Below are positions 16,729 to 37,073 of a stretch of DNA of 64,000 nt, piece by piece. Origin of the DNA: an uncultured Candidatus Rokubacteria bacterium. GTDB taxonomy: Bacteria; Methylomirabilota; Methylomirabilia; Rokubacteriales; CSP1-6. Below the pieces are notes generated by a model. That model was given only the letters and a program-made list of their open reading frames with translations. It did no database searches and was not told where the DNA came from. The translations under genes were made by a program, and so were the position numbers. Each line of letters opens with the position of its first letter. Positions within the stretch are counted from its first letter, which is position 1. Where the stretch lies: NCBI GenBank assembly GCA_963762145.1, contig CAVXJS010000021.1, positions 256,001-320,000 of the forward strand, read 5' to 3'.

Positions 16729-16752
16729 ACCGGTCCCGGTCGCCCGGTCGCC

Positions 16753-20139: not shown

Positions 20140-20922
20140 GTGGGCCTAGCGACGTTCCTTGAGCGCACGTGGAGCGGCATCGCCGGGCTCGTCAAGCCAC
20201 GCTCGGCCTCCTCTCTCTTTCGGCTGGCCGACCAGTATCGCCACGAAGGGCGTTACGAGGACGCGGCCGAGCTGATCACCGAGGGGCTGCGCGTCTCGCC
20301 TAACATCGCGGTCGGTCACCTGCTGGACGCCTACCTTCACGTGGTGTTCCGCGAGATGCCCGCGGCCAAGGCTTCATTCCGGCGCGTCCTCGGGCTCGAT
20401 CCCTACCACCCGCGTGCCCTGTTTGGGCTCGCGCGCATCGCGCTGGAAGAGGGCGACATCGAGGGATGCCGGCCCTTCCTCGACCGGGCGATCCAGTACT
20501 TCCCGGATTTCCCGGAAGCAAAGGCGCTGCAGGAGATGGTGGCCACCTGGACCGCCCCCGCCCCGGGAGCCTCGACGGCGATCGGGGCGATCTCCACCGA
20601 GCGGCTTCGGCTGCCTCCGGGCGCCCAGGACCTCGTGCTGACGCGCGCGGACGGCAAACTCGTGTTCGCGCAGGGGAGCGAGGAGCGGCAGAAGCACCTC
20701 GGGCTGCACATGACGCAGGTCTACCGGATCGCGTCCGCCACGCTGGCCCGGGCCGGGCTCGGCGCGATGCGACGGGGCGTCATCGAGGGCGCTGAGGAGA
20801 CGACCTTTCTCCGCAGCGACGGCGGCGTGATCCTGGGTGTCGCGCTCGCGCGTGAGGTCGAGGTGGGAGCGGGACTGGTGCAGGTCGGACGCTTGTGGAC
20901 GGATCTCAACATCAAGGCCTGA
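20140..20922 (+). CDS. TPR protein with a C-terminal degenerate Roadblock-like domain
   Basis: Three TPR-like helical repeats, then VLTRADGKLV...GVIEG...VILGVAL...VGAGLVQV following the Roadblock secondary-structure pattern. Confidence 0.65.
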   Translation: MGLATFLERTWSGIAGLVKPRSASSLFRLADQYRHEGRYEDAAELITEGLRVSPNIAVGHLLDAYLHVVFREMPAAKASFRRVLGLDPYHPRALFGLARIALEEGDIEGCRPFLDRAIQYFPDFPEAKALQEMVATWTAPAPGASTAIGAISTERLRLPPGAQDLVLTRADGKLVFAQGSEERQKHLGLHMTQVYRIASATLARAGLGAMRRGVIEGAEETTFLRSDGGVILGVALAREVEVGAGLVQVGRLWTDLNIKA

Positions 20923-20926
20923 GCCG

Positions 20927-21361
20927 ATGGCCGACCCGCAGACCACCGCCGATTCGACGCCTCCGGGCGGCACGCCGGCCCCGCGCCCATCGCGGGCGCA
21001 GGCCTTCCGCGAGACTCTGTCCGAGCTGACCCGGCTCGATGGCGTGCGCGGGGGGCTCATCGTGACGCCGGATGGCCTCGTCATCACGTCGGAGCTGCCC
21101 CCCCGCTTCCCGGTGGAGGCGCTCGCCGCGCTCGCGGCCACCCTCGGGCGTGAGCTGGAGCTGGGAGCGAGCCGGCTGGAGCGGGGCGCCTTCCGCACCG
21201 CGCTCTTCTCGGCGGACGACGGGACCGTCTTCGTGGGGGGCAGCCCGGTCGGCTACGTGACCCTCGTCGCGGACCGCAACGTGAACAACGAGGGGGTTCG
21301 CACCGCACTCGGCCGCGCAGTGGATCGCCTGCGCGGCACCTGGCGCACCCCGTCCCCTTAG
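20927..21361 (+). CDS. Roadblock/LC7 (MglB-like) protein
   Basis: LDGVRGGLIVTPDGLVI...LAALAA...YVTLVA. Confidence 0.88.
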   Translation: MADPQTTADSTPPGGTPAPRPSRAQAFRETLSELTRLDGVRGGLIVTPDGLVITSELPPRFPVEALAALAATLGRELELGASRLERGAFRTALFSADDGTVFVGGSPVGYVTLVADRNVNNEGVRTALGRAVDRLRGTWRTPSP

Positions 21362-21460
21362 GGGAGCGCGTCCGAGTCACCTCGTTCGAGCGCCGGCTTC
21401 GCCGGCGCAACTCGTTCTGGGGGAGGCTCGGAGGGGGCCGCCGAGGCCCCCTTCGATGAC
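21362..21460. repeat. REP-like double hairpin between convergent genes (possible bidirectional terminator)
   Basis: GCGCCGGC-TTC-GCCGGCGC (21390-21408) and TCGGAGGGGGCC-GCCGA-GGCCCCCTTCGA (21428-21456). Confidence 0.7.
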
Positions 21461-23527
21461 TTATCCCATCGTCACTCGAATCACTTCCTCCACCGTCGTC
21501 ACGCCATCCACCACCTTCTGCAGCGCGTTCTGTCGCAGCGTCTTCATGCCCTGCGAGCAGGCGGTCTCGCGGATCTCGGCGGTGGTCGCGTTGCGCAGCA
21601 TGAGATCCCGGAGCTCGGAGGTGATCGGCATCACCTCGTAGATGGCCACCCGGCCCTTCATGCCCGTGAAGTTGCACGTCTGGCAGCCCTTGCCCTTGTA
21701 GAAATTGACGTTGCCGAGCCCCTGGGACACGTGCCCGTAGGGGACCAGGCTCTCCTCGTTCGCCTCGTAGGGCTCCTTGCAGTCCTTGCAGATCTTCCGT
21801 CCGAGCCGCTGGGCCAGGATCAGCTGGAGCGAGGACGAGACGAGGAAGGGCGGGATACCCATGTCGAGGAGCCGCGCGGGAGTGGACGGGCAGTCGTTGG
21901 TGTGCAGCGTGGAGAGCACGAGGTGGCCGGTGAGGGCGGCGCGGATACCGATCTGGGCCGTCTCCAGGTCTCGGGTCTCGCCGACCAGGATCACGTCCGG
22001 GTCCTGCCGCAGGAAGCTCCGCAGGCACGCCGCGAAGGTGCGGCCGATCTCGTCGTTGACCTGCACCTGGTTGACGCCCTTCAGGTTGTACTCGACCGGG
22101 TCCTCGGCGGTCATGATGTTGATGTCCGGCGAGTTGATGGTGTGGATCGCCGAGTACAGCGTGGTGGTCTTGCCGGAGCCGGTCGGGCCGGTGATCAGGA
22201 TCATGCCGTAGGGGCTGTGGATCGCCTTGCTGAACTGCTCGAGGCTCCACGGGTCGAAGCCGAGAGCCCCCATGTCGAGCTGGAGCGCTTCCTTGTCCAG
22301 GATACGCATGACGGTCTTCTCGCCGAAGATCGTCGGCAGCGTCGAGACCCGGAAGTCGATCTCCCGCTGGTGGTAGCGCAGCTTGATGCGGCCGTCCTGG
22401 GGGAGCCGGCGCTCCGCGATGTCCATCGTGGCCATGATCTTCACGCGCGAGGTCAGGGCCGCCTCGAGGCGCTTGGGCGGCGTCATGATCTCGTGTAGCA
22501 CACCGTCGATGCGGAACCGGACCCGGAAGACCTTCTCGTACGGCTCGAGGTGGATGTCGGAGGCGCCCCGCCGGATGGCGTCGGTCAGGATCATGTTGAT
22601 GAGCCGGACCACCGGCGCCTCGTCGGCCGACTCCTTGAGGTCGAAGACGTCGGCCTTGCTGAAGGCGGCCTCGCCGTCCTCGACGACCTCGACGTCGGTG
22701 TCGGCCTCCTCCAGCTCGCTCATCATGTCGTTGACGCTGGCGCCCGTCTCGTAGAGACGCTCGAAGGCCTTGCGGATCGCCGCCTCGGAGGCGACCACCG
22801 GCTGGATCTGCAGGCCGGTCATGAACCCGACGTCGTCGAGCGCGAAGACGTTGGTGGGATCCGCCATCGCGAGGGTGAGGACGTTCCCGATCCGCTTGAT
22901 CGGGAGCACGCTGTGCTTCTTGGCGATCTGCTCGGGCACGAGCTTGAGCACGTCCGGATCCGGATCCACCTGCGCCACCGTGATCGCGGGCATGGCGTAC
23001 TGCTTCGACAGGAACGAGACGAGGCTGTCCTCGGTGATGAACTGCAGGCGCACCAGGATCGTCCCGAGCTTGTCGGCGCTGCCCTTCTGCTCGGCGAGCG
23101 CGCGCTGGAGCTGCTCCGGGCTGATGAGCTTCTCGGCCACTAGCCGGTCCCCGAGACGCGACAGGCTGCCCTGGCGACGCTCGATCGAGGAGACCCCGCC
23201 CCGCTTGCCCGCCAACGGGGTCGGCGCGACCTCGATGGACGCGGCGAGCGCCTCCATCTCCTCGGTCGCCGGCACCCGACCGGCCGCGGGCTCCGGGGTC
23301 GGCGCCACGCTCGCGGACGGCCGTCCTCCCACCGTACCGGCAAGGCGCGCCACGACCCGGGCCAGGCTCTCCCGATCACCCAGCTTGGTGTAGATCTCCT
23401 TCAGGGTCTCGAGCGCCCCGGTGTCCGACGGGTTGGCCTCCACGATCATCTCGCAGAGTCGGGCCGACTCGGCCAGGGATCGCTTCTCTTCCGAGGACAG
23501 CGAGATCTTGTTGTCGGTCTGCGCCAT
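21461..23527 (-). CDS. pilB: Type IV pilus extension ATPase PilB (GspE/PulE family) with an N-terminal extension
   Basis: ERRLPQDGR, GPTGSGKT, TAEDPVEY, LRQDPDVILVGE, TGHLVLSTLH, CKDC...CQTC Zn site, MshEN-like RLG repeat. Confidence 0.9.
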   Translation of the reverse strand: MAQTDNKISLSSEEKRSLAESARLCEMIVEANPSDTGALETLKEIYTKLGDRESLARVVARLAGTVGGRPSASVAPTPEPAAGRVPATEEMEALAASIEVAPTPLAGKRGGVSSIERRQGSLSRLGDRLVAEKLISPEQLQRALAEQKGSADKLGTILVRLQFITEDSLVSFLSKQYAMPAITVAQVDPDPDVLKLVPEQIAKKHSVLPIKRIGNVLTLAMADPTNVFALDDVGFMTGLQIQPVVASEAAIRKAFERLYETGASVNDMMSELEEADTDVEVVEDGEAAFSKADVFDLKESADEAPVVRLINMILTDAIRRGASDIHLEPYEKVFRVRFRIDGVLHEIMTPPKRLEAALTSRVKIMATMDIAERRLPQDGRIKLRYHQREIDFRVSTLPTIFGEKTVMRILDKEALQLDMGALGFDPWSLEQFSKAIHSPYGMILITGPTGSGKTTTLYSAIHTINSPDINIMTAEDPVEYNLKGVNQVQVNDEIGRTFAACLRSFLRQDPDVILVGETRDLETAQIGIRAALTGHLVLSTLHTNDCPSTPARLLDMGIPPFLVSSSLQLILAQRLGRKICKDCKEPYEANEESLVPYGHVSQGLGNVNFYKGKGCQTCNFTGMKGRVAIYEVMPITSELRDLMLRNATTAEIRETACSQGMKTLRQNALQKVVDGVTTVEEVIRVTMG

Positions 23528-23546
23528 GGTCGTCGATGTCCGTCAG

Positions 23547-24035
23547 CTAGACCGGACGCTCCCGCAGCGAGGACTGCACCTCGTCCTTGTGGAGCGGCGT
23601 CGACAGCACGCCGGTGCGCTGCGGCCGCGTCCGGGTCTCGGCCAGGATGGCCCCGATCGCGGTGCCCGCCTCCTTGGCGAAGAGACGGACCATGCCCACG
23701 GTGGTCCGGCTGTCGAAGATGGCGAGCAGGATCGCGTGCTCGTCCACCGCGGCGACGTGGATGCTCTCCTTGACGCCCTGATGAAACAGCATCGTGAACT
23801 CGGTCTCGCCGAGCAGCCGCGCCATCGCGGCGGTCGAGCTGAACGCGCCCGCGGCGAGCGCGGAGAGCGACACGGTGTCGAGCGACCGTGAAGCGCCTCC
23901 GCGAGCCAGGAGCTGTCCGCTCCGATCGATCAGGAGCGATTCCATCGCTCCCGATTCGCCCAGGAAGTGCAGGAGAACGCCGTTGATCCGCTGCGCGTCA
24001 TCCTCGTGGATGGCCAGGTTGTCATTTAGACTCAT
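23547..24035 (-). CDS. mglB: MglB (Roadblock/LC7), cognate GAP candidate for MglA
   Basis: LLIDRSGQLL, SLSALAAG, EFTMLFHQG..ESIH, IFDSRTTVGMVRL; adjacent to mglA. Confidence 0.9.
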   Translation of the reverse strand: MSLNDNLAIHEDDAQRINGVLLHFLGESGAMESLLIDRSGQLLARGGASRSLDTVSLSALAAGAFSSTAAMARLLGETEFTMLFHQGVKESIHVAAVDEHAILLAIFDSRTTVGMVRLFAKEAGTAIGAILAETRTRPQRTGVLSTPLHKDEVQSSLRERPV

Positions 24036-24639
24036 TGAGCGCCCCCTGTTCTTGTCCGAACCCGGCGACGAGAACCATGCGAGAGACGGTGTTGAGCGTA
24101 TCGAACACGCCCTTGCCCTCGACGGCGACCGATTCGAAGTACGGAACCCGCCGGCTCTTCCGGTTCAGCATGTATTCGAGGTACTCCACCGGAGCCACGT
24201 TGGGCAGGTCCCGCTTGTTGTACTGGATCACGTACGGGATCTCGTCAAGATTGTACCCGTATTCCTTGAGATTCTCTTCGAGGTTTCTGAAGCTCTCCAC
24301 GTTCTCGGGCAGGCGATCCCACTGCGAGTCCGCGACGAAGACGATGCCGTCGACGCCCCGCAGCACCAGCTTGCGCGTCATGTTGTAGTAAATCTGGCCC
24401 GGCACCGTGTAGAGCTGGAACTTGGCCACGAAGTTCCGCACCGTCACCGCGGAGACCGGCAGGAAGTCGAAGAAGAGCGTCCGATCGTCTCCCGTCGCGA
24501 GCGACACCATGTTGCCGCGGTTGACGTCCGGGAGGCCGCGGTAGATGTACTGGAGGTTGGCGGTCTTCCCGGCCACCCCGGTGCCGTAGTAGACGATCTT
24601 GAAGCTGATCTCTTTTTGCGCGTAGTTGATGATCGACAT
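24022..24639 (-). CDS. mglA: MglA Ras-like small GTPase
   Basis: KIVYYGTGVAGKT (G1), DRTLFFDFLP (G2 with Arg), TVPGQ (G3), NKRD (G4), GVFDTL. Confidence 0.95.
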   Translation of the reverse strand: MSIINYAQKEISFKIVYYGTGVAGKTANLQYIYRGLPDVNRGNMVSLATGDDRTLFFDFLPVSAVTVRNFVAKFQLYTVPGQIYYNMTRKLVLRGVDGIVFVADSQWDRLPENVESFRNLEENLKEYGYNLDEIPYVIQYNKRDLPNVAPVEYLEYMLNRKSRRVPYFESVAVEGKGVFDTLNTVSRMVLVAGFGQEQGALNESK

Positions 24640-24648
24640 CGAGTCGCC

Positions 24649-27624
24649 TCAGGCCGACATCAGCGTCGCCGCTGCGCGCTCGACCTGGCGGTAGGCCAGG
24701 CCGGGCCGGGTGACGGATCCACCCGCGACGATGACGATCGACCGCCCGTGCCCGATCTCTTCGGGCTGGATGACGAGGAGCGTGTCGCCGGATCGCAGGA
24801 TCGCGGTCCGGAACACGGCGCCTGACCCCGCCGCCTTGCGCATCACGGCGTGGAGGTCCTGCGCGAACGCTCCCACCGCAGGCACGTCGTCTCCCGCCGG
24901 CAGGAAGAAGTAGAGGACCGCTTCGCTTTCCGCGTCTCTCAGCACCGACGCGGTGACGTCACCGAACGCGGTCAGCCCTCCCGTGAGGACCGCCGCCCGA
25001 CTCGGCACCGCGGCCGTCGCCAGGCTGGAGCTGGCCGCCGGAACCACGTCCTGACCGGGGCCCGCGGTACGCGCGCCGCGGTCGGCTGCGGCGCGCCGGC
25101 AGAGGATCTCGAGCAGCGCGAGCGTGCCGCCGCGAGGCGCCGCGGCCGCGAGAACCGGTCCCCGGTCGGCCGGACCGCCGAGCGGCGTCAGCACGACGGC
25201 CGTCTCCGGCCCGCGCAGGGTGATCTGATCGACCGGCCAGGACGGACGGCGATCCGTGAACAGCGGCAGGGCGAGGCCCGCCACCGCGACCGCGGTTTCA
25301 TGGGCGACCGTCGGCGCGGCCATCGCAAAGACGGTGACGCCCTCGACCGCCTGGACGCTCACGTCGAAGGACGCGATCGGCGCCAGCAGCGCGACGATAC
25401 GTCGGGCCTCCGCCGCCTCCGCGGCCCCGGGAACGAGCGCGGCGGGAGTCGGGGCGGCCGGCGCCGGCTCGGCCCAGGCGGCGACGGCGGCCCGGGCGGG
25501 AGAAGGCTTGGGCCAGGCGAACGCGGGCGGGGCTGGCGGCACCGAGGGCGGTGCGACCACCGGGGTCGGAACGGTCACGTGCGGCTCCGGCTGCGCGAGC
25601 ACTGGCCGCGTCTCGAGATCGCGGGGGCGGTCCAGCTCGACCCTCGCGACGACCGGAAGCTCCTCCGGCCGCTCCTCGATCGGATCCGGCACCGGATCGA
25701 TGCGGGGCGCATCGGCCATGACGGGCTCAGGTTCCGGGAGCGACGCGATGGCGGGTTCTGGCTCCAGCACGGTCTCCCGCGGCGACTCCTCGGCAGCGAC
25801 CGGCTGCGGCTCGGGCTCGGGGGCGGCCGCCGCTTCAACCGACGCCTCGGGCGCCGGATCCGACACGAGCGGCTGAAAGGGCGCCGGGAAGGACTCGATG
25901 CCGCGGACGTCGACGGCCGGGCCGGCGGCGGCCAAGAACAGGTCCAGCGGGACCTGCCGGACGACCTCGTCGAGCGGGAGGCGCAGGCCGTTCGGCAGAC
26001 GCTCGGTCATCTCCGCGTCCGAGACGGCCATCGCCTCCTGGGGGAATTGCGGCGCGATCACGTCCCAGCCGATGCGAATCAAGCCCTCCGCGAGCTGAGG
26101 CAGCACGAGCGACTGCGGGATCAGCAGCGCCCCGGGCTGCCGCATCCGCTCGGCCACCTCGTCGAGCGGAACGCGGAACGCTTCCACGGGAAGCTCGGCC
26201 GCCACGCGACTCCACGAGATACGCACGATGGGCTCGTCGGTGCCAGGCGCGGCGGCGGCCGAGAGCTCGAGCGCGGCCGGCTCGGGCTTCCTCACCGGCT
26301 CCGGCGTGACCGTCATCGCCGGCTCGATCGGCCGGGGCGCGGCGAGGGGCCGGATCGCCACGGGCTCGGCCGGCTCCGCCGGCTGTGACGCCGACGGCAC
26401 CGCGAGCGGGATCGGAGCGGGGGCGCGCGGCGCCTCCGGCGGCGGCGTCGGCCTGACCGCCGGGGCCGGTGCGATCTCGGGCTCCGGCTGCCTCACTGCC
26501 GCAGCCTCGGTCGGTGCCTGGGACTCGTCCATCGGGTGGAACGGCACCGGGATCCGGTGGAGCCCGTGGATCTCGACCTCGGGGGTATCCGCGACGAACA
26601 GCTCCTGTGGCAGCTGGCGGATCACCTCGTCGATGGGGAGCCTCAAGCCTTCGTCCAGGTGCTCGGCGATCTCGGCCTTGCTCAATCCCACCAGGTGGGC
26701 CGGGAACTGATCGGCGATATCGCTCCACGCGACCCGTGCCATCCCCTCCGATAGCTGGGTGACCACGAGCTCGCCGGAGATCCGGAGGAACCCGGGCTCG
26801 GCGAGGCTTGCCGCCACCTCGTCCTCCGGCGCGAGAAAAGTGCCGGGAGGGAGCTGGTCCATGACGCGGTCGAGCGCGATGCGCAGCACGACTTCCGATC
26901 GGCCGGGCACGCGGGCCGGCTCGGCGTCGCGCCGGCGCTTTGCCGCCGCGGCGCGGCGCCGACGGGGCTCCTCGTCCGGTGCCGGAACGGGCGCAGGCGG
27001 TGGGGGCGGCGCCACCGGGGGGACAGGAGCTGACATCACGCCGGGCTCGGGAGCCGGCTCGGCTCGCGAGAGCAGCGCGTCGCTCAGGGAGCCGCTCCCC
27101 TCGAGCGCAGGCGCGCTCGGCACGCGAGTGGGTGTGGCAGACCGGGCCCGACTCACCGACGAGCGCGCGGTCGAGGCACCCCGCTCGCGGGGAAGACGGG
27201 CGGGCGCGTGCAGCAGGTCACGGAGCGGCACCAGGAGCAGCATCACGCCGAGGAGCTCCGGCAAGGGCGGCGGCAGCATCCAGGGCAGGGCGCGGCCCGC
27301 GAGCGCCGGATCGAGCAACGCGCTGAGCGGCTCTCGGGACATGCTCAGCAAGACGTGGAGTCCGCTCAGGAGCGCGGTGCCCACGAGCCATCGCACGATG
27401 GATGGACGGCGAACCCAGAGCCAGACCAGCAAGCCGTACACCACCGGCGGAATGCTCGCGACCGCCCACTTCGGCAACGGCACCTCGAACTGGAGAGGGA
27501 CGAGGGTCAGGAGGTAGATGACGCCGACATACGCGGCGAGGCCCAGCACCGCCATGAGCCAGGACGAGAGCCGCTGGGCGCTGGACACGAAATGATGGGA
27601 CGTTCTCATGGAGGAAGGCCTCAC
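24649..27624 (-). CDS. Unknown 991-aa membrane-anchored protein: N-terminal TM helices, two ~120-aa repeat domains, Pro/Ala linkers, C-terminal tandem Roadblock-like domains
   Basis: Hydrophobic N-terminus, visible internal duplication, position within the gene string with an overlapping start. Confidence 0.75.
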   Translation of the reverse strand: MRPSSMRTSHHFVSSAQRLSSWLMAVLGLAAYVGVIYLLTLVPLQFEVPLPKWAVASIPPVVYGLLVWLWVRRPSIVRWLVGTALLSGLHVLLSMSREPLSALLDPALAGRALPWMLPPPLPELLGVMLLLVPLRDLLHAPARLPRERGASTARSSVSRARSATPTRVPSAPALEGSGSLSDALLSRAEPAPEPGVMSAPVPPVAPPPPPAPVPAPDEEPRRRRAAAAKRRRDAEPARVPGRSEVVLRIALDRVMDQLPPGTFLAPEDEVAASLAEPGFLRISGELVVTQLSEGMARVAWSDIADQFPAHLVGLSKAEIAEHLDEGLRLPIDEVIRQLPQELFVADTPEVEIHGLHRIPVPFHPMDESQAPTEAAAVRQPEPEIAPAPAVRPTPPPEAPRAPAPIPLAVPSASQPAEPAEPVAIRPLAAPRPIEPAMTVTPEPVRKPEPAALELSAAAAPGTDEPIVRISWSRVAAELPVEAFRVPLDEVAERMRQPGALLIPQSLVLPQLAEGLIRIGWDVIAPQFPQEAMAVSDAEMTERLPNGLRLPLDEVVRQVPLDLFLAAAGPAVDVRGIESFPAPFQPLVSDPAPEASVEAAAAPEPEPQPVAAEESPRETVLEPEPAIASLPEPEPVMADAPRIDPVPDPIEERPEELPVVARVELDRPRDLETRPVLAQPEPHVTVPTPVVAPPSVPPAPPAFAWPKPSPARAAVAAWAEPAPAAPTPAALVPGAAEAAEARRIVALLAPIASFDVSVQAVEGVTVFAMAAPTVAHETAVAVAGLALPLFTDRRPSWPVDQITLRGPETAVVLTPLGGPADRGPVLAAAAPRGGTLALLEILCRRAAADRGARTAGPGQDVVPAASSSLATAAVPSRAAVLTGGLTAFGDVTASVLRDAESEAVLYFFLPAGDDVPAVGAFAQDLHAVMRKAAGSGAVFRTAILRSGDTLLVIQPEEIGHGRSIVIVAGGSVTRPGLAYRQVERAAATLMSA

Positions 27625-28505: not shown

Positions 28506-28508
28506 GAT

Positions 28509-29402: not shown

Positions 29403-29405
29403 CGC

Positions 29406-32336
29406 CTACTCCACCAGGCTCCCGCCGTGGGCGGAGCCGGCGACTTCGAGTGCCCGCTCCCCCGAGACGATCGATTCGACGATCCGCACGAAACTCTGCT
29501 CGTCCACCGGCTTCGTGACGTAGTGGCGCACGCCCAGGCGCCGGGCCAGGTCGACGTGCTTCGCGCCGGCGCGCGTCGTCATCACGATCACCGGAACCTC
29601 GCGGGTCGCCGGCCGCCGCCGCAGGTCCTCGATCAGGCCGTACCCGTTGAGCCGCGGCATCTCGAGATCGGTGACGACCACGTCCACGTTCCGCTCCACG
29701 AGCTGCGCGAGCGCGTCCTGGCCGTCGATCGCGGTGACGACCTGGAAGCCGGCCTTCTCCAGCATCTGACCGACGAACTTCCGGATGCTCACCGAATCGT
29801 CCACCAGCATGACGGTGGGCCGACGCTCCGCGGGGTCGAGCGGAGCCGGCTCGCGCACCGGGGCGGCTGGATGCCGCGTCGCCGCCTCGCGCAGAAGGGT
29901 CGGGTCGAGGAGCAGGATCACGCGGCCTTCGCCCGAGATCGTGGCGCCCGAGAACGGACCCACCCCCTCGACCAGCGCGCCCAGGCTCTTGATGACGATC
30001 TCTTCCTTGCCCAGGAGCTCGTCCACCACCACGCCGAAGGGCTTGCCACCACCCCGCATCACCACCACCGGCAGACGCGAGGGCGGCGGAGACGGGACCA
30101 GACCCAGCGCCCGATCGAGGCGGACGAGCTCGATCGTCCGGTCGTCGAGCGACACGGTCTCCCGCCCGCCCGCGACCTGGATCTCGCGCGGCGCGACCGA
30201 CCGCATCGCGCTCACCCCGGTGAGCGGGAACGCCACCGTCTCCGGCCCGCACCGCACCATCAGCGCGTCCGCGATCGCCATCGTGACGGGCAGCTTCAGG
30301 ACGAAGCGCGTCATGCGCCCGGCCTCCGTCTCGACGTGGATCTCTCCGTTGAGCCGGCTGACGTTGGTGCGCACGACGTCGAGGCCGACTCCGCGACCGG
30401 CGGTCTGGGTCACCGAGGACGCGGTGCTGAAGCCCGCCACGAAGATGAGGTTCAGGATCTCGCCCTCGGGCAGCGTGGCCGCCTCGGCCGGGGGCAGGAA
30501 CCCGCGCTCCACCGCGTGCCGCCGCAGCACCTCGGTATCGATCCCGCGCCCGTCGTCCTCCACCACCACCAGGATGAAGCTGCCCTCCTGGGACGCGGAC
30601 AGAGTCACGTGGCCGGCCGCCGCCTTGCCGCGGCTCTCGCGCTCCGGGGCCGGCTCGATGCCGTGCGCCACCGCGTTCTGGATCAGGTGCAGCAACGGGT
30701 CGGCGATCTGCTCGATGATCCCGTTGTCCACCTCCACCGACTCCCCGCGCACCGTGAGGCTCACCGACTTGCCGGTGGCCCGGGCCGTCTCCCGCACCTG
30801 CTGGGCCACCCGCGCGAAGAGCCGGCCGATGGGCACCATGCGCGCGCGCGTGATCTCCTTGCGGAGGGCCGCGGTCAGCCGCTGGATCTGCACCGTGTCT
30901 TCCCGGATGTTGCGCAGGAGGGTCGCGTGCTGGCTCTGCACCTCGGCCACGTCCGCGGACATCTCGGTCACGCTGCGGGCCAGGATATTGATGTCGTCGT
31001 AGCGGTCGAACTCGAGCTCGGCGAAGAGATCGGAGATGTCGCGCAGCTTCCCTGCCGCGTCGCGCTCGGCGCCGCGGCCGTCGCGGGGCATCGTGGGCGC
31101 CTGCTGGCGGAACTCGAAGTCGCGGCCGACCTGGCCGAGGCGCGTGCGGCTGGCGAGGAGCAGATCGCTCACCTGGTCGAGCTGGGCCAGCCGCCGGTCG
31201 AGGCGGCTCCGCGCGATCATCAGCTCCCCCACCAGGTTCATGAGCGTGTCCAGCCGCTCCACCGGCACCCGGATGCTGGGCCCGGAGGTCGCCGCGCTCG
31301 AGGCGCGGAGGGCCGGCCGCGGCAGAGCCTCGAGCCGGGCCAGGAACTCGGGGCGCACGAACGGCGGCAGCTCCAGCGAGGGCGTCCGCGCGAGATCCGG
31401 CGCCTCGGGGGCGACGACCGGATCGGGAGCCTCGACCGCGGGCGGAATGGCCGGGCGCTCGGGCAGGCTCTCCGAGGCCGCCAGGAGGCGCAGGTCGCGC
31501 GTCGCGCGCTCGAGCGCCTCCGCCGCCTCCTCGGACACCGCGGCCCCGGACTGGAGCACCCGCTTGATGGCCGCGGCTCCCGAGAAGATCGCCTCGGTCA
31601 CCGCCGGTGTGGCGGGAAGCCGCTGCTCGCGCAGTACGCCGAGAAGATCCTCGATGTAGTGCGTGGCGTCGCCGAGCGGGGCGCATCCGACCGTGTACGC
31701 CGCGCCCTTGAGCGTGTGAGCGGCCCGGAAAACGGTCGCCAGCGTGTCCTCGTCGCGCGCGCCGCCCTCGATGGCGAGCAGGGCGGTGGTCATCGACTCC
31801 AGGTGCTCGGCGGCCTCGGGCACGAAGTACTCGAGAACCTCGCCGCCCTCGGCGAAGAACCGCCGCAGGTCGGCGAGCAGCGGTGAGATCGGAGCCGGCG
31901 GCAGGGCGATCGCGGGCTCCGGGTCGGGCGCGGCGGCCGGCGAGGCGAAGAACGCGGGATGACGGGACTTGAAGTCCGCGATACGGGCCGAGTCCTCGTT
32001 CCCGACTGCGCTGATGCCGTCGAAGACCTCCTTCAGGAGGTCGACGAGGCCTTCCAGGAAGACGGCCGATCCGACCCGCTCGTCGGCCGACGCGGTCGGG
32101 GCCCGCTCGAGCAGGCGCTCGGTGCCCGCGGCGAGCTCCGAGACGCCGGGGAACCCGTGAAGGGCGGCCGAGCCCTTCAGACGGTGCGCGAAGACGACGA
32201 GTGTCGCGAGAGCCTCCGCGGTCGGATTCTCCGGAGCGGTGAGCAGGCCGAGCTCGTCCTCGATGGCCCCGGCGGTATCCCAGGCCTCCATCAGGAAGAT
32301 GCCCAGCAGCAGCTCGCGCTCGCGACGATCGGCCAT
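29406..32336 (-). CDS. cheA: Hybrid chemosensory histidine kinase (CheA/ChpA-like): 2 HPt, HATPase, CheW, REC
   Basis: AHRLKG and AHTLKG HPt motifs; IRVPVERLD.LMNLVGEL; NAVAHG, DDGRG, GFST, GRGVGLDVV; C-terminal DD...TDLEMP...KP. Confidence 0.95.
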   Translation of the reverse strand: MADRRERELLLGIFLMEAWDTAGAIEDELGLLTAPENPTAEALATLVVFAHRLKGSAALHGFPGVSELAAGTERLLERAPTASADERVGSAVFLEGLVDLLKEVFDGISAVGNEDSARIADFKSRHPAFFASPAAAPDPEPAIALPPAPISPLLADLRRFFAEGGEVLEYFVPEAAEHLESMTTALLAIEGGARDEDTLATVFRAAHTLKGAAYTVGCAPLGDATHYIEDLLGVLREQRLPATPAVTEAIFSGAAAIKRVLQSGAAVSEEAAEALERATRDLRLLAASESLPERPAIPPAVEAPDPVVAPEAPDLARTPSLELPPFVRPEFLARLEALPRPALRASSAATSGPSIRVPVERLDTLMNLVGELMIARSRLDRRLAQLDQVSDLLLASRTRLGQVGRDFEFRQQAPTMPRDGRGAERDAAGKLRDISDLFAELEFDRYDDINILARSVTEMSADVAEVQSQHATLLRNIREDTVQIQRLTAALRKEITRARMVPIGRLFARVAQQVRETARATGKSVSLTVRGESVEVDNGIIEQIADPLLHLIQNAVAHGIEPAPERESRGKAAAGHVTLSASQEGSFILVVVEDDGRGIDTEVLRRHAVERGFLPPAEAATLPEGEILNLIFVAGFSTASSVTQTAGRGVGLDVVRTNVSRLNGEIHVETEAGRMTRFVLKLPVTMAIADALMVRCGPETVAFPLTGVSAMRSVAPREIQVAGGRETVSLDDRTIELVRLDRALGLVPSPPPSRLPVVVMRGGGKPFGVVVDELLGKEEIVIKSLGALVEGVGPFSGATISGEGRVILLLDPTLLREAATRHPAAPVREPAPLDPAERRPTVMLVDDSVSIRKFVGQMLEKAGFQVVTAIDGQDALAQLVERNVDVVVTDLEMPRLNGYGLIEDLRRRPATREVPVIVMTTRAGAKHVDLARRLGVRHYVTKPVDEQSFVRIVESIVSGERALEVAGSAHGGSLVE

Positions 32337-32340
32337 CGGG

Positions 32341-34207
32341 TCAGCTCGCCAGCTTGAAGCGGGATAGCTTGGCGGTCAGCTCTTCCGCCAGGTGGGCCAG
32401 CTGCTCGACGTTCTTCCGGCTCTGCTGCACGCCCTGCTCGGCCTTCACCGCCGCGCCCGCAATCGCCTGCACCGCCCCCGCGGCGGCCTCGGCGCCCCGG
32501 ACCTGCGTCTGCGAGGCGTGGGAGATCTCGGCCGCGAGCTCGGCGGACGTCTGCGAGATCTTCCCGATCTCCTGGAGGGCCTCCTCCGCCTTGAGACTCA
32601 CCTCGTACCCGGACTCGACCTCCCGGGTGCCGGCCTCCATCGCCACCACCGCCTCCTGGGTCTCCACCTGCACGCCCTTGATGAGCGTGCCGATGTCCCG
32701 GGTGGCCTGGGTGGCCCGCTCGGCCAGCTTGCGCACCTCGTCGGCCACGACCGAGAACCGCAGCCCCGCCTCGCCCGCACCCGCCGCTTCGATCGAAGCG
32801 TTCAGGGCGAGCAGGTGCGTCTGGGCCGCGATGTCCTGGATGGTGTTCACGATATTCGAGATCTCGAGCGAGCGGTCGCCGAGGGACTTGATCTTCTTGG
32901 AGATCGTCTGCACCTCGGCCCGGATCTGCTGCATGCTCGCCAGGCTGTTGCGTACCGCTCCCTCGCCCTTGCTCGCGGCCTGGAGCACCTGGCGTGCCGC
33001 CTTCGCGCTCTGGTCGGCACTGTCCGCGACCTGGCGCACCGAGACCGTCACGTCCGCCACCGAGCGGGTCACGCTCACCGCGTCGCGGGTCTGGGCCTGC
33101 GCCGCCTCCGCGAGCTCGCCGGTGATGCGGATGGTGTCCTGCGAGCCCGAGGCCACGCGGAGGGCGGCCTGCCGCACGTCGCCGACGACCGAGGAGATCT
33201 CCTCGACCATCAGGTTGATCGCGTCCACCACGTTGCCGAGCACGTCCCAGCTCACCTCGCCGCGCCGGGTGAGGTCGCCCTTGCCGATCTCCACCACCGT
33301 GTCGAGGAACGTGATGATGTTCTGCTGCAGGTCCTCGCGCTTGCGGCGCTCCTCGTCGCGGTCGGTCTCGGTCTGGACCAGCGAGCGGAGCCGCACGATG
33401 GACTCGTTGAAGGTGACCGCCATCTGACCGATCTCGTCGCGCGACGTGACCGGCACCAGCTGGGAGAGGTCGCCCCGGCCCACGCGCTCGGCCACGCTCA
33501 CGAGGGCATTGACCGGACGCGTGATGCGCTGGGCGAAGATCACGCCCGCGAGCACCGCGACCGCCGCGATCCCCCCCAGCACCAGGAGCAGGAAGTTGCC
33601 GGCCCCGACCGCCGCGGTGCGGATGATCGACTTGTCCATGCCCACCCGCACGGTCCCGAGGCGGCCGCCCAGCATGGGCACGCCAATGTCGATGATCTCG
33701 CGCTCGCTCCCGCCGCGGGGATCGGAGATAGGTGAGCTCCTGGACCTGCGGCCGGGAGGCCTGCCCCGGCACCACGTTCTTCTCGATGATGCCCTTGGGC
33801 ACCACCGGGGCGAAGGTGTGGGCCACGAGTGCGCGCTGGGGATCGTAGACCATGACGTAGGCCACGCCGGAGATCTTGGCGAACTCGTCCACCTGGGCCT
33901 GCACGGTGGATGCGTCACGATTGACCACGAGGTCCGCCGCGGAGCTCGACAGGCTGTTGGCGATGGCGCTGCCCTTGTCGGTGAACTCGCGGGTGAGATT
34001 CTCCTGCAGCGACCGATAGGCGATGGTCCAGCTCGCGATCGCCACCGGCAGCAGGACCAGCACGAGGAAGATGGTGATCTTGCCCAGCAGGCCGAACCGC
34101 GCCCGGGAGACCGGAACGGGTGCGGCCTCGACGGGGGATCCCTCCGCGCCCTTCCTCGACCCGTGCCTTCTCCAGCCTCGCTTCAAGCCGTCCATGCCCA
34201 TGTTCAT
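32341..34207 (-). CDS. Methyl-accepting chemotaxis protein (PilJ-like), with one frameshift near 33727
   Basis: TM-periplasmic domain in one frame; TM-HAMP (SRDEIGQMA..FN) and QTHLLALNASIEAA...FSVVADEVRKLAE in another; removing 1 nt joins ELTY to SDPRGG. Confidence 0.9.
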
Positions 34208-35454
34208 GCCTTGACCGCGGCGGCCCAGTCGGCGACCGGCACCCAGCGATCGCCCTCGACCCGCGTGAAGTAGACGCTGTCCAGCCCCTGGTGCCGCTCG
34301 GCGCTGAAGGTGAGCGGCGCGCCGATTCCGAGGTCGAGGCCGCGGAGCGATTCCAGCGCCTGCCGGAAGGACGGCCGCCCCGCGTTGGACCCCGCCCGAC
34401 GCAACGCCTCGACGATCACCCGCGCGTTCACGTATCCCTCGAGGCTGATGAAGCTGTACTTCTGCGGCGCGTAGGCGGCGTCGCGAAGTGCCTCGGGCAC
34501 CTGCGGGTTTTGCTTGTCCATGAGGGCCCGGTACTCGAGGACGCCCGGCAGCACGGTATCGTCGTAGCTCGGCACCACCTGGGAGTTGATCAGCGCGCGC
34601 GTGTAGTCACGGCCCTTCGCGCGACCGTGCTTGGCCAGCAGGCCGAGCATGGCGTCCGATCCCACGAACGAGACGTTGGAGATCGGCGCGGTCCAGCCCG
34701 CGTCGCGCGCGGAACGCACGAAGGCAGCGCAGCCCTGGTAGGCCCCGGTGCAGAGCACGACCTCGCTGCCCGCCTCGCGGAGGGCCTGGACCGCGATCGT
34801 CATGTCCTCCTCGAACTTGGCGTTGCGGACGTAGGTGGCCTCCGCCACGATCTTGGCGTTGCGCGCGGCGAGGGCCCGAGCGACCCCGTCGGTCCCGCTG
34901 CGCCCGTAGGCGTCGATCTGGTAGTACACGCCGAAGCGCCGCGCCCCCGCCTGCCAGAAGCGCTCCACCAGCGCCGACATCTCCTGGCGATAGGAGGCTC
35001 GGACGTTGAAGACCTGATCGACGTAGGGAGTCTCGCGCTGGGGCTGAGCGCCGGTGAAGTTGCCTACCAGGACCACGCCCTGATCCGCGTACTGCTTGAT
35101 CACGGGCAGCGCGCGCGTGAGGGTCGGCGTGCCCACGTAGTTCGAGAGCAGGAACACCTTCTCTCGGTCCAGCAGCTGGATAGTGTTGCGGATGCACGGG
35201 TCCGGGTTGTAGCCGTCGTCGAGCGCGACCACCGTGATCTGCCGCCCGAAGAGGCCGCCGCGCGCGTTGATCTCACTGTAGTAGGCCTGCGCGCCCCGGT
35301 AGAGCTCGCTGCCGAGGCCCGCCGCGGCGCCCCGGAACGCCGCGCTCATGCCGATCCGGATCTCGCCCGCCTGGGCCCGCGCTGCGGTCCGCGGCAGCAC
35401 GACACTCGCGAGGCCGGTCGAGAGGACGCTGCCGATGAAGCCTCTCCGGTTCAC
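34204..35454 (-). CDS. Tat-exported periplasmic binding protein (type I, Liv-like), with no permease genes
   Basis: NRRGFI twin-arginine signal, IRIGMSA, LDDGYNP, VGTPT, FNVRASY, SLEGY. Confidence 0.85.
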   Translation of the reverse strand: MNRRGFIGSVLSTGLASVVLPRTAARAQAGEIRIGMSAAFRGAAAGLGSELYRGAQAYYSEINARGGLFGRQITVVALDDGYNPDPCIRNTIQLLDREKVFLLSNYVGTPTLTRALPVIKQYADQGVVLVGNFTGAQPQRETPYVDQVFNVRASYRQEMSALVERFWQAGARRFGVYYQIDAYGRSGTDGVARALAARNAKIVAEATYVRNAKFEEDMTIAVQALREAGSEVVLCTGAYQGCAAFVRSARDAGWTAPISNVSFVGSDAMLGLLAKHGRAKGRDYTRALINSQVVPSYDDTVLPGVLEYRALMDKQNPQVPEALRDAAYAPQKYSFISLEGYVNARVIVEALRRAGSNAGRPSFRQALESLRGLDLGIGAPLTFSAERHQGLDSVYFTRVEGDRWVPVADWAAAVKA

Positions 35455-35966
35455 GCGGATACCTCCTGCGCGATCGTCGAAGTCGAGGGTCGAAGGGCGG
35501 CCAGGATCTTCGGAACGTCGAGCAGCGGCACGGTCTCCCCGGCCCAGTGGATCCAGCCCGCCATCACCGGACGGGGTCCCGACATCCGCGCGGCGGTCGG
35601 GCTGTCGACCGGCGCCACGTCCTCGTAGGGCTCGAGCCCGAGCACGGTGTCCACGACCAGCGCGGCCTGCACGGCGCCGTCGCGCACCACCAGCGTGCGG
35701 AGGGTACGACCGGGGCGGGCGTCCGCCAGTCCCAGCAGGTCCCGGACATCGACGATCGGCATCACGGTGCCCCGGAGGTTCGCCACGCCGACCAGATGCC
35801 GGGGGGCGCGGGGGACCGCGGTGAACTCGTCGAAGAGCACGACTTCTCGGGCGCTCCGGACGTCCACCGCGAAACGGGCCCCGGCCAGCGCGAACAGGCA
35901 GGCGCGCGGCGCCGGAGGGGCGTCCGGAGCAGCCGGCAGGACGGGGATCACGGGAGTCGGCGTCAT
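35451..35966 (-). CDS. cheW: CheW adaptor (PilI-like)
   Basis: VPRAPRHLVGVANLRGTVMPIVD, ALVVDTV, LLDV. Confidence 0.92.
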   Translation of the reverse strand: MTPTPVIPVLPAAPDAPPAPRACLFALAGARFAVDVRSAREVVLFDEFTAVPRAPRHLVGVANLRGTVMPIVDVRDLLGLADARPGRTLRTLVVRDGAVQAALVVDTVLGLEPYEDVAPVDSPTAARMSGPRPVMAGWIHWAGETVPLLDVPKILAALRPSTSTIAQEVSA

Positions 35967-35970
35967 CGCG

Positions 35971-36333
35971 CTATTTCACGAACTGGCGCACCATGCCGAG
36001 AAGCTGGTCCGCGGTGAAAGGCTTGGCCAGGTAGTCCGCGGCGCCCTGTCGCTGCCCCCACAGGCGATCGCTCTCCTGATTCTTGGAGCTCACGAACACC
36101 ACCGGGGTGTCCTTGGTGCGGGGGTCGCGCCGGAGCCCGCGCAGCACCTCGTAGCCGTTGCGCTTGGGCATCACGATGTCCAGGAGCAGCAGGTCCGGCC
36201 GCTCCTCCACGACCCGATCCTCCAGGAGCTCGCCGTGATCGTACGACACCACCTGATGCCCGGCCGCCTTGAGGATGCCCTCGATCAGTTTCAGCTCTGA
36301 CACGGCGTCATCGACAACCATCACTTTGCCCAC
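35971..36333 (-). CDS. Single-domain response regulator (CheY/PilH-like)
   Basis: GTG start after GAGGAGG; VVDD...LLDIVMP..NGY...SSK..ESDRLWG.RQGA..YLAKPF. Confidence 0.92.
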   Translation of the reverse strand: MGKVMVVDDAVSELKLIEGILKAAGHQVVSYDHGELLEDRVVEERPDLLLLDIVMPKRNGYEVLRGLRRDPRTKDTPVVFVSSKNQESDRLWGQRQGAADYLAKPFTADQLLGMVRQFVK

Positions 36334-36393
36334 GAAGCGACCCTCCTCGACTGCGAGTGCACCTGGCCATAGCTTTTCGGGGGGTTCATCTAC

Positions 36394-36409
36394 TGCAAAC
36401 CCCCTACCA
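36394..36409 (-). promoter_or_regulatory. Putative sigma-54 promoter of the chemosensory-Mgl-PilB gene string
   Basis: Minus strand TGGTAGGGGGTTTGCA = GG-N10-GC with TTGCA, ~60 nt upstream of the first gene. Confidence 0.55.
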
Positions 36410-36746
36410 ACCGATGTTTTCCGCCGTCTTGGGCGCCGTTCAGCACTCGTCCGGGTCAATGCCGTGGATTCAAGGCTTTCCGGCCCTCCGGGGTCGTTTT
36501 GGGGACCGCCGTGGCAGGGTGACACCGGGCGGACGTCCGGTAGGTGACGCCTACTGTCAGAAGGACTGCCCCGAACCGTCGGCTGGACTGCCCAGTCCGC
36601 CGGGCACGGGCCGTCCTCCGGGCCCGGGGCCGGGGGTCAACTTGCGATGATGGGGGGGCTATGCTAGCGTGGCGGTGCGTTTTTTATGGAACTCTCACCC
36701 GCTGTCCCGCACCAGTCCTGCCCGACCATAAGGAGACCTTGGATCA

Positions 36747-37073
36747 ATGTCCGATAGCACGCTCCATCTCACCGAGGCCAGCTTCGATACGGAACTGGGC
36801 AAGCATGCCGAGCTGCTGATGGTGGACTTCTGGGCCGAGTGGTGCGCCCCCTGCCGCGCGATCGCCCCCACGCTCGAAGAGCTGGTGCGGGAAGGAAACG
36901 GCTCGGTGACCCTCGCGAAGGTGAACGTGGACGAGCAGCCGGCCCTGGCGGCTCGCTACGGGATCCGTTCCATCCCGACGATCCTGTTCGTCAAGGGCGG
37001 CAAGGTGATGGACCAGGTGATCGGCGCGGTTCCGAAGGCGCAGCTCAAGAAGAAGCTGGACGCGAACGCCTGA
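36747..37073 (+). CDS. trxA: Thioredoxin
   Basis: DFWAEWCAPC, IRSIPT; AAGGAG Shine-Dalgarno. Confidence 0.97.
   Translation: MSDSTLHLTEASFDTELGKHAELLMVDFWAEWCAPCRAIAPTLEELVREGNGSVTLAKVNVDEQPALAARYGIRSIPTILFVKGGKVMDQVIGAVPKAQLKKKLDANA

Follow-up and report, generated by a model that had tools for sequence, protein, structure and literature searches.

A conserved Rokubacteria gene cluster joins a chemosensory pathway to MglA/MglB, Roadblock proteins and PilB: a candidate signalling unit for type IVa pili

In a stretch of 64,000 nucleotides from an uncultured Candidatus Rokubacteria bacterium (assembly GCA_963762145.1, contig CAVXJS010000021.1, positions 256,001 to 320,000; hereafter the window), positions 20140-36333 hold 11 co-oriented minus-strand genes and a convergent plus-strand pair, as determined by open reading frame (ORF) listing and by Pfam and NCBIfam matches. 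From first to last, the minus-strand genes encode CheY, CheW, a periplasmic binding protein, a chemoreceptor (methyl-accepting chemotaxis protein, MCP), a hybrid CheA with a receiver domain (CheA-REC), a pseudo-receiver fused to a PATAN domain (pseudoREC-PATAN), a receiver-Roadblock fusion (REC-Roadblock), a 991-residue membrane protein, MglA, MglB and PilB (Table 1); the convergent pair encodes a TPR protein and a small Roadblock protein. The junction gaps among the 11 genes range from -14 to +19 nt. All 13 genes named in an earlier note on this DNA proved to be present where it had placed them, by ORF, Pfam, NCBIfam and PDB matches. The locus is, in our judgement, rather probably one signalling-to-output unit that steers type IVa pili; the contacts between the proteins, the direction of signal flow and the output are what we infer.

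The gene arrangement is not due to chance: it recurs in each of the full-length related loci that were examined. The refuting condition of the earlier note, loss of synteny in relatives, therefore does not apply. The synteny is retained well beyond the window: the full order, including the convergent pair, is kept in all six full-length loci of close relatives (one of which, L028, lacks the binding protein and the sensor part of the receptor; labels in G and L denote the genomes and loci compared). A locus of another genus (G024) shares this order, and a further locus (G023) ends at a contig edge. Within the window's family (f1; the sister family is f4), the cluster is conserved across the 12 genera examined. 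Among 12 f1 loci from nine further genera, the Che genes, pseudoREC-PATAN, REC-Roadblock and the membrane protein precede mglA in 11. Near-identical DNA occurs in soil metagenomes, and the metagenome-assembled genomes that carry relatives of the 991-residue protein are titled Methylomirabilota or Rokubacteria, with a few other labels; the lineage is a non-model one, as the earlier note had supposed.

In the proposed mechanism, the periplasmic binding protein would present a ligand to the only chemoreceptor of the genome, and the receptor would control the hybrid CheA via CheW, without methylation-based adaptation. Phosphate from CheA would pass to three canonical receivers: the kinase's own REC, CheY (probably a sink or antagonist) and REC-Roadblock. 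Once phosphorylated, REC-Roadblock may change its Roadblock pairing with MglB, with the small Roadblock and TPR-Roadblock proteins and with the two Roadblock domains that end the 991-residue protein, and this pairing would set the place and time of GTP-bound MglA. The 991-residue membrane protein would act as an MglA anchor and possibly as an exchange factor. MglA-GTP would recruit or activate PilB on a pilus machine encoded 60-75 kb away, assisted by TPR-Roadblock (in an SgmX-like role) and by pseudoREC-PATAN (as a PilB binder resembling PixG/PixE), while the PilB N-terminus would additionally sense cyclic di-GMP (c-di-GMP). The step from the Che proteins to MglA is proposed because their join is conserved, because of the receiver-Roadblock and pseudo-receiver-PATAN fusions, because no other Che output was found and because a repeat in the membrane protein, described below, is present where MglA is present. 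For the step from MglA to PilB, the grounds are the adjacency of the two here and in other lineages, PATAN-PilB binding and the published work on MglA, SgmX and pili.

Published findings bear on both steps. In Synechocystis, the PATAN domain (DUF4388) binds PilB1 (at its N-terminus) and PilC (10.1101/2021.06.11.447907), the closest published link and one that the earlier note does not mention; in Myxococcus MglA-GTP and the TPR protein SgmX stimulate pilus formation (PMC7519303, PMC7668184). Regulators of MglA include the Roadblock proteins MglB and MglC as well as RomR, a receiver protein (PMC9481161, PMC10329633). Guzzo et al. proposed that the pilus regulation of Deltaproteobacteria originated when MglAB was recruited to a chemosensory system (PMC4546325); the present locus exemplifies such a recruitment, at the level of the genome, in another phylum.

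MglA matched the Thermus (PDB 3t12, 1.6e-71) and Myxococcus (5ymx, 4.7e-68) structures and is ~60% identical to the Myxococcus protein. Group-1 MglA proteins are defined by the P-loop, an intrinsic arginine next to the G2 threonine and a TVPGQ motif (PMC4316618); all are present, as GTGVAGKT (GxxxxGKT), as the Arg before the G2 Thr in DDRT, and as YTVPGQ. The mglA and mglB genes overlap by 14 nt, in the tandem arrangement of group 1. MglB matched the PDB MglB 6h5b (2e-24) and the NCBIfam model NF052242 (1.3e-22, below its cut-off).

Roadblock folds were assigned to five genes and six domains: MglB, REC-Roadblock, the small Roadblock protein, the TPR protein and, twice, the 991-residue protein. 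The earlier note's count of five Roadblock-bearing genes is thereby upheld, with the correction that the 991-residue protein itself ends in two such folds. In sequence-profile comparisons (hhalign), REC-Roadblock gave 93.7% against MglB, and the small Roadblock protein 95.2% against the Roadblock part of REC-Roadblock. The small Roadblock ORF is open from 20837; its likely start is the ATG at 20927, 4 nt past the TPR stop, and the gene is kept beside the TPR gene in 8 of the 12 f1 loci. The name TPR-Roadblock, given earlier to the neighbouring protein, draws on its predicted topology and on its relatives, while Pfam is blank for the Roadblock part of the window copy. The AlphaFold model (pLDDT 83) has TPR helices at 23-136 and a C-terminal topology of b-b-a-b-b-b-a. 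Robl_LC7 was matched in 5 of 15 aligned family members (best 8.4e-8) but not in the window copy at E<=1; the syntenic genes of L135 and L085 are TPR+Robl_LC7 by Pfam. By hhalign, the C-terminus remained under 20% against the MglB, REC-Roadblock and small Roadblock profiles; a structural search (VIA) with the model listed TPR proteins only, and BLASTP against the L135 TPR-Robl protein aligned the TPR part alone (E 5e-4). The protein is a candidate MglA effector or adaptor.

The 991-residue protein has no match in Pfam or NCBIfam. Its AlphaFold model, from a 19-row alignment, has a mean pLDDT of 66.7 (80-96 in the structured parts) and comprises four transmembrane (TM) helices (15-138), Pro/Ala-rich disordered linkers, two alpha/beta repeats of ~105 residues (245-343 and 465-567; repeat 1 versus repeat 2, hhalign 100%) and two C-terminal domains modelled as Roadblock folds (734-853 and 868-991). 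Against the 48,161 chains searched with VIA-align, residues 871-991 superposed on MP1-p14 (2zl1_B) with Z 6.6 and an rmsd of 2.9 over 110 of 116 residues, and also on an Asgard Roadblock (7yh1_D, Z 6.5), a Streptomyces Roadblock (Z 5.9) and MglB (3t1r_A, Z 5.9). Residues 735-855 superposed on a Thorarchaeota Roadblock (7f8m_A, Z 5.1), MP1-p14 (Z 4.9) and MglC (7cy1_A, Z 4.8). The remaining VIA rows were helical-bundle matches to the TM part. By hhalign, the C-terminal domains were under 20% against the MglB profile and under ~21% against those of REC-Roadblock and the small Roadblock protein, and Foldseek with the whole model returned nothing from the PDB at E<=0.001. The central repeats, searched within the whole model, had no row among the top 50 VIA matches.

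The repeat itself is widespread and tracks mglA. A repeat profile matched 269 representatives at E<=1e-3, and 134 at E<=1e-30, among 1.84 billion proteins; none of the ten representatives scanned contained a Pfam domain. The profile was then run over six-frame translations of the collected loci (one re-building round, domain E<1e-3); the re-building drew on hits from the same loci, which inflates the E-values somewhat and leaves the negatives unaffected. The repeat occurred in an ORF ending <=200 nt from mglA in all seven family-type loci, in 18 of the 27 other mglA-mglB loci with at least 1.5 kb upstream (anywhere in the locus, 21 of 27) and in 4 of 10 loci in which MglB was not seen. Even at E<=10 there was no match in nine mglB-mglA loci, eight Methylomirabilota loci of other families, five MglA-less Che loci or three unrelated controls. 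Among the metagenome loci L077-L116 (GC content 0.55-0.67), most of those with the order mglA-mglB have a repeat-marked gene directly before mglA. The 1102-aa protein of L085 combines repeats with the second C-terminal domain (B). It is possible, if doubtful, that the 991-residue protein founds an undescribed family of MglA partners, large proteins (membrane-anchored in the window's case) that are marked by the repeat and the Roadblock ends, are encoded immediately before mglA throughout the mglA-mglB branch and across several phyla, and serve as the anchor and exchange factor of MglA where RomR/RomX are lacking; in Rokubacteria it would be the hub at which phosphorylated REC-Roadblock couples the sole chemosensory pathway to the GTPase and the pilus motor.

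Among the chemosensory genes, CheA contains two Hpt stretches, a dimerisation domain, HATPase_c, a CheW-like domain and a C-terminal REC at 842-953. Several Hpt domains and a C-terminal receiver in CheA reportedly mark the Tfp class (Pil-Chp/Tax) as defined by Wuichet and Zhulin in 2010, and the locus CheA has both. Receptors of the Tfp class are of the 40-heptad kind, to which the MCP may belong: over its signalling domain it aligned with the Pseudomonas receptor 6s18 without gaps for 298 aa, and its alignment with Tsr needed a 14-aa gap. The earlier label of a Pil-Chp-like pathway is right for gene order and for the CheA-REC architecture, but neither CheR nor CheB was found in the genome, which is 88% complete. 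CheY most likely starts at GTG 36333, behind a GAGGAGG sequence, rather than at 36409 as previously proposed.

An alignment of the four receivers set three of them apart. The canonical DD/D/S-or-T/K residues are present in CheY, the CheA receiver and REC-Roadblock; in the latter, DD/D/S/K is intact in all 19 orthologues that have a REC, and the receiver-Roadblock fusion occurs in 19 of 20 orthologues. In contrast, the fourth is a true pseudo-receiver, as the earlier note had called it: the phospho-acceptor Asp is replaced by Tyr, T87 by Ala and K109 by Gly, leaving Ala, Tyr, Ala and Gly at four of the five key positions. All 20 orthologues lack the Asp, and in each of 18 a Gly stands at K109. 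The fusion of this degenerate receiver to PATAN is likewise found in 20 of 20; the DUF4388 match scored 46.8 bits (cut-off 25). In L075, a sister locus by the MglA tree below, REC and Roadblock are separate adjacent genes immediately before mglA.

The receptor has the architecture TM, sCache_3_2-like periplasmic domain, TM, HAMP and MCP signalling domain, and the binding protein encoded before it, with a twin-arginine-like leader and an N-terminal RRGF motif, is probably its ligand-presenting partner. This binding protein was considered as part of the adjacent Liv transporter, an assignment that was rejected as the transporter has its own; it is a separate paralogue of the latter. In the closely related locus L028 (L028:2913-4044), the binding protein is absent and the MCP has a different N-terminal part, without the sensor domain, which suggests that the two are swapped together.

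PilB is of the type IVa extension type. It scored 750.5 bits against TIGR02538 (cut-off 675.65) and 625.3 against the GspE model, below the cut-off of 630.25, and its MshEN domain carries the c-di-GMP-binding motif (NF053729, 70 bits versus 38). Ahead of MshEN lies an N-terminal extension of ~120 aa with a helical hairpin and a Pro-rich linker. Over residues 124-687 the window PilB shares 81% identity with the canonical copy of G201; its identity to the Mgl-linked copy of that genome is 79%. Because of this 81% identity to the canonical protein, the Mgl-linked PilB is read, from sequence comparison, as a recent accessory paralogue with an added N-terminus. Two PilB-grade matches each (canonical and Mgl-linked) were found in G201 and G172, and one, canonical, in G135. 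G002 and G007, both of the window's genus and the former 100% complete, have one each, adjoining mglA in both cases, and the window PilB is the only PilB-grade match found in its own genome.

The cognate pilus machine is encoded on the same contig, 60-75 kb from the locus (C21:204-220 kb): PilT, PilC (frameshifted in the assembly), PilR, a pilin, PilM, PilN, PilO and an AMIN-secretin. This cluster (L147, G000:C21:204500-220300) lacks pilB and has MazG and Macro genes in its place, whereas its counterpart in G201 (L148) opens with pilB and also holds pilS and pilD. The Mgl-linked PilB seems to have replaced the canonical copy in the window's genus, where it is now the sole extension motor. The description of the system as self-contained, made previously, has to be given up: PilT, PilC, PilR, PilA and PilMNOQ lie 60-75 kb away, PilB is a recent paralogue and the parts also occur separately. 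The genome (6.26 Mb, 25 contigs) has five T2SSE ATPases. One of these, on C7, was considered as a second PilB and rejected, with 655 bits against GspE (cut-off 630), the reverse of the window PilB, and a position within a type II secretion cluster. The latter (L029, G000:C7:376000-396000) comprises GspE, GspF, pseudopilins including GspJ/K-like ones, PilM/N-like and GspM-like (GspL/M-like) proteins and GspD, beside cytochrome c maturation genes.

The output of the pathway might be of another kind. With the wiring as proposed, the locus could switch pili on or off (in adhesion, aggregation, DNA uptake or predation-like contact) or position another envelope machine, which we regard as unlikely. 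The c-di-GMP-binding MshEN motif of PilB, typical of surface-commitment control, is compatible with such a switch, as are the ComEC gene that opens L104, a Che-less relative of the locus, and the MglA of Bdellovibrio, which serves pilus-dependent invasion rather than motility (PMC3983030). However, a PilT-type retraction ATPase adjoins PilC in the pilus cluster, and a chemoreceptor that senses a ligand and has a binding protein of its own is more in keeping with navigation than with on/off switching; neither point is decisive. MglA, MglB, the CheA core, CheW and MCP are single copies in the genome, and all three of its Robl_LC7 matches and its only DUF4388 match are in the locus. Five genomes, 88-100% complete, gave no FlhA, and each carries exactly one MCP, in a locus of this type. 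The locus suggests that non-flagellated, uncultured soil Rokubacteria navigate by pili with a single receptor.

The modules of the locus also occur apart from one another. A scan of metagenome contigs with the MglA alignment collected 80 loci. Eight were of the family type (991-aa-like gene, MglA 73-100% identical, GC 0.69-0.73, all mglA-mglB), and in all four of these with at least 8 kb upstream, CheA and MCP were found there. Among the other 72 loci, a CheA core lay within 10 kb in one (L132) of 23 with at least 8 kb on one side. PilB was found near mglA in L077, L079, L080, L104 and L135. Five loci without Che genes are informative in terms of gene content: L135 (DUF4388, TPR+Robl_LC7, a gene of unknown function, Robl, MglA, MglB, PilB, PilC), L104 (ComEC, DUF4388, two Robl genes, MglA, MglB, PilB, PilT, PilC), L077 (TPR+MshEN, PilB, an 830-aa protein ending in Robl_LC7, MglA, MglB), L085 (two PilT, TPR+Robl_LC7, the 1102-aa protein, two Robl genes, MglA, DUF4388+Robl, MglB) and L075 (PilM to secretin, REC, Robl, MglA, MglB, DUF4388). 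In a tree of 93 MglA rows, the 15 Che-linked MglAs formed one clade (100/99), sister to L075 (98/89), and six MglAs from other Methylomirabilota families fell apart from it, in a clade of their own within the mglB-mglA loci; the tree has a midpoint root, from which neither donor nor direction can be claimed. To judge from gene content, the system is built of three movable blocks: Che with REC-Roadblock, MglA with its Roadblock, PATAN and TPR partners, and PilB.

Of the 251 genomes of the phylum, 124 gave an MglA match, among them 77 of the 158 genomes of f1 (tallies that include the unpublished genomes G233, G084 and G074). Eight loci from other families have the order mglB-mglA, with MglA 52-57% identical and the other genes of the locus absent within 10 kb. 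In f4, 10 of 21 genomes (including the unpublished G233 and G074) contain a CheA orthologue of full length, with 51-59% identity, and no internal stops were seen in the f4 CheA matches at the three loci checked. Four f4 loci, L149-L152 (G034, G031, G037 and G243, respectively), begin with CheY, CheW, in some cases the binding protein, MCP and CheA. Next come a free receiver (125-153 aa), REC-Robl_LC7 and a protein of 621-675 aa, and the genes beyond are unrelated. The 621-675-aa proteins carry the C-terminal Roadblock-like domains of the 991-residue protein (A in all four, B in two of the four) and lack the repeat. The f4 genome G034 has a single MCP and no FlhA.

A number of observations weigh against the reading of the locus as one unit that acts through MglA on pili. 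The f4 loci lack MglA, MglB and PilB in four of four cases, as well as PATAN, their free receiver being a pseudo-receiver, and MglA was found in one of 21 f4 genomes, as a partial 43% match. Because these loci have REC-Roadblock and the tandem-Roadblock protein without MglA, the two proteins need not act on MglA and may have another target. In f1, one locus (L058, in G207) has the membrane protein, MglA, MglB and PilB with no Che genes upstream. MglB follows mglA in 11 of the 12 f1 loci, with none shown in L056, and PilB follows MglB in 7 of 12 (not in L049, L050, L051, L052 and L056); the locus lacks PilB in genera g20 and g21. Co-transcription of the 11 genes is presumed. The two C-terminal domains of the 991-residue protein are predicted Roadblock folds by whole-domain superposition of a model, with middling Z values of 4.8-6.6. 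The weakest assignment among the five Roadblock genes is that of the TPR protein, whose C-terminus is taken as a Roadblock fold on the basis of modelled topology and of relatives. Finally, the MCP gene carries a 1-nt insertion near 33724-33726 relative to four of four aligned orthologues.

Such findings leave room for the view that the Che half and the MglA/MglB/PilB half are two independent neighbours, the former with another target, as it must have in f4, and the latter a separate polarity module inserted downstream, with no signal passing between them. Besides f4, the Che-less loci named above, L075, L085, L104, L135 and L077, and L058 speak for this view, as does the grouping of the 15 Che-linked MglAs with metagenomic mglA-mglB loci, apart from the six of other Methylomirabilota families. 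We nevertheless hold it to be quite improbable. The Che-Mgl join is kept, in the same order and with tight spacing, in 11 of 12 loci from nine genera, in the window's genus and in G024. The membrane protein of the MglA-bearing family has gained the repeat that tracks mglA, whereas the f4 version has none. PATAN, elsewhere a partner of the Mgl module, is here fused to a receiver-like domain right after cheA, whereas f4 has the free pseudo-receiver only. The pathway is also the sole Che pathway, and no other output, such as flagella, was found.

As to the split receptor, the MCP gene called in the earlier note is present, divided in this assembly over two frames. The frame from ATG 34207, which overlaps the stop of the binding-protein gene by 4 nt, encodes a TM segment and a weak sCache_3_2-like match, and the frame 32341-33918 encodes the second TM segment, HAMP and the signalling domain. 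Orthologous MCPs are intact (603-639 aa). The frameshift is probably an assembly error, because the same assembly splits Hydantoinase_B (window 11783-13347, in two ORFs) and PilC (G000:C21:205856-206839, in three frames), and a PilT-like gene (G000:C9:536429-537253) lacks its N-terminal part. That the locus is instead decaying, with the MCP a true pseudogene and the pathway no longer sensing, as the insertion might indicate, is highly improbable given that both halves are open and 85-96% identical to orthologues, that the assembly splits other conserved genes and that all other genes of the locus are intact.

Among published mechanisms, Frz-MglAB-SgmX and the PATAN regulators of cyanobacteria come closest. 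As in the Frz system of Myxococcus xanthus, the proposed chain runs from a chemoreceptor through a CheA-REC and receivers to a group-1 MglA with its Roadblock GAP and on to pilus extension, and extra Roadblock proteins and a TPR protein accompany MglA. The functions of receiver and Roadblock, which reside in RomR and MglC in Myxococcus, are however fused here in one protein; the order is mglB-mglA there and mglA-mglB here; and here mglA is preceded by the gene of a membrane protein that combines the novel repeat with tandem Roadblock domains. Moreover, the Myxococcus genes lie in separate loci, with mglA away from its partners (PMC4316618), whereas here they form one predicted operon. Frz has a cytoplasmic receptor, FrzCD, the CheR/CheB proteins FrzF/FrzG and the dual-receiver FrzZ (PMC4546325). 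The present system is not of this Frz (ACF) type: its receptor has TM segments, a periplasmic domain and a probable binding-protein partner, CheR/CheB were not found and the locus has no dual-REC gene. As regards RomR/RomX and SgmX, a functional analogy is proposed.

The cyanobacterial Tax/Pix system (PixG/PixH/PixI/PixJ/PixL) shares the list of Che parts, the lack of CheR/CheB genes, the hybrid CheA-REC and the pairing of one plain CheY with one PATAN-containing regulator. In contrast to the PATAN-REC order found there, the regulator here is a REC-PATAN with a non-phosphorylatable receiver, and thus not of the PatA type; a photoreceptor domain is lacking, and MglA/MglB and Roadblock proteins are added. 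The Pil-Chp system of Pseudomonas aeruginosa has the gene order CheY-CheW-MCP-CheA, a multi-Hpt CheA with a receiver, PilK/ChpB and PilG/PilH with FimV/FimL, and targets the pilus extension motor. In terms of these generally known features, the locus shares the gene order and a CheA with more than one Hpt and a C-terminal receiver, together with the gap-free alignment of its MCP signalling domain to that of the Pseudomonas receptor and, as proposed, the target. It differs in that no equivalents of PilK/ChpB were found, in its one plain CheY and in its proposed output via MglA, Roadblock and PATAN proteins.

The Che-less MglA modules (L075, L085, L104, L135 and L077) share MglA, MglB, one or two extra Roadblock genes, PATAN, TPR-Robl_LC7 and a large upstream protein with the repeat and/or a C-terminal Roadblock domain, often with PilB, PilT and PilC alongside. 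They differ in the lack of chemosensory genes, in having receiver, Roadblock and PATAN separate or recombined (as PATAN-Roadblock in L085) and in a GC content of 0.51-0.67. An analogy purely of architecture, with middling Z values, may also be drawn to the eukaryotic Ragulator (LAMTOR)/Rag GTPases, in which membrane-anchored sets of Roadblock folds likewise scaffold and regulate a small GTPase. Wuichet and Sogaard-Andersen (2014) described the neighbourhoods of group 1 MglA as varying widely, occasionally with PATAN genes, and 'CheA' is absent from the main text of that paper (PMC4316618). In the literature searched, mostly outside subscription journals, no description was found of a Che-MglAB-PilB operon, of the receiver-Roadblock regulator or of the repeat family, and nothing relevant on MglA, pili or chemotaxis in Rokubacteria or Methylomirabilota; the earlier note did not know of a characterised equivalent either.

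To our knowledge, the links from a Che kinase to MglA/MglB and from MglA to the pilus motor have been worked out only in Myxococcus xanthus, where the connecting steps are debated. A single conserved presumed operon with a receiver-Roadblock fusion names concrete candidates for these steps, and the proteins of the locus are small or modular enough for reconstitution in vitro. It offers a compact natural example of sensing that may be wired to pilus-based movement, and, should the 991-residue protein indeed act as the hub, a hard-wired minimal version of the system whose genes are dispersed in Myxococcus. Furthermore, a protein family that Pfam does not match tracks mglA in many uncultured lineages, well beyond Rokubacteria.

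Table 1. Features of the locus, in window coordinates, with the matches or models on which each assignment is based
Feature	Position	Strand	Basis
TPR protein, 260 aa	20140..20922	+	Pfam TPR families, repeats at 23-136; C-terminal Roadblock-like domain ~162-255
Small Roadblock/LC7 protein	20927..21361	+	Pfam Robl_LC7 1.8e-7; convergent with pilB
PilB, 688 aa, type IVa pilus extension ATPase	21461..23527	-	TIGR02538
MglB, 162 aa, Roadblock GAP of MglA	23547..24035	-	Robl_LC7 1e-13
MglA, 205 aa, group-1 Ras-like GTPase	24022..24639	-	PDB 3t12, 5ymx matches
991-aa membrane protein (X991)	24649..27624	-	AlphaFold, VIA-align; Pfam/NCBIfam blank
REC-Roadblock response regulator, 294 aa	27621..28505	-	Response_reg 3.3e-25, Robl_LC7 1.8e-7
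Pseudo-receiver with C-terminal PATAN (DUF4388), 297 aa	28509..29402	-	Response_reg 1.5e-12, DUF4388 3.6e-12
Hybrid CheA, 976 aa	29406..32336	-	Pfam
Transmembrane MCP	32341..34207	-	HAMP, MCPsignal; weak sCache_3_2; split over two frames
LivJ-type periplasmic solute-binding protein	34204..35454	-	Peripla_BP_6 3e-49
CheW, 171 aa	35451..35966	-	Pfam CheW 1.7e-25
CheY, single domain, first gene of the presumed operon	35971..36333	-	Response_reg 1.2e-23
Intergenic, ~500 nt, common to divergent anthranilate synthase gene	36334..36838		Sequence

The G+C content of the window is 67-74%, and third-position G+C is 0.87-0.96 for every gene of the locus, similar to that of the flanking genes. The intergenic region before cheY is the presumed promoter region of the operon; a sigma-70-like site was not found in it. 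A promoter and terminator scan of the locus, uninformative at 70% GC, returned no promoter-like and three terminator-like sites, against 3.5 expected.

The TPR/Roadblock pair, present in 8 of the 12 f1 loci, occupies three different positions; the contigs of L053, L054 and L058 end in pilB, and none was seen in L056. A complete LivJHMGF-type ABC transporter adjoins the locus (window 15259-20039, plus strand; its own binding protein at 15259-16728), and LivG and LivF flank the locus also in L021, L023, L051, L052 and L068. A 10.9-kb contig with a GC content of 0.75 (L153, G054:C25), in a genome of another family, carries a Che locus of the f4/f1 type with a CheA 54-56% identical; the same genome also has MglA in the mglB-mglA order, and the contig may be mis-binned. 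In L135 (10001-11248), the MglA frame is open for 415 codons, which suggests a C-terminal extension of ~220 residues or a missed stop, and a similar gap of 660 nt separates mglA from mglB in L104.

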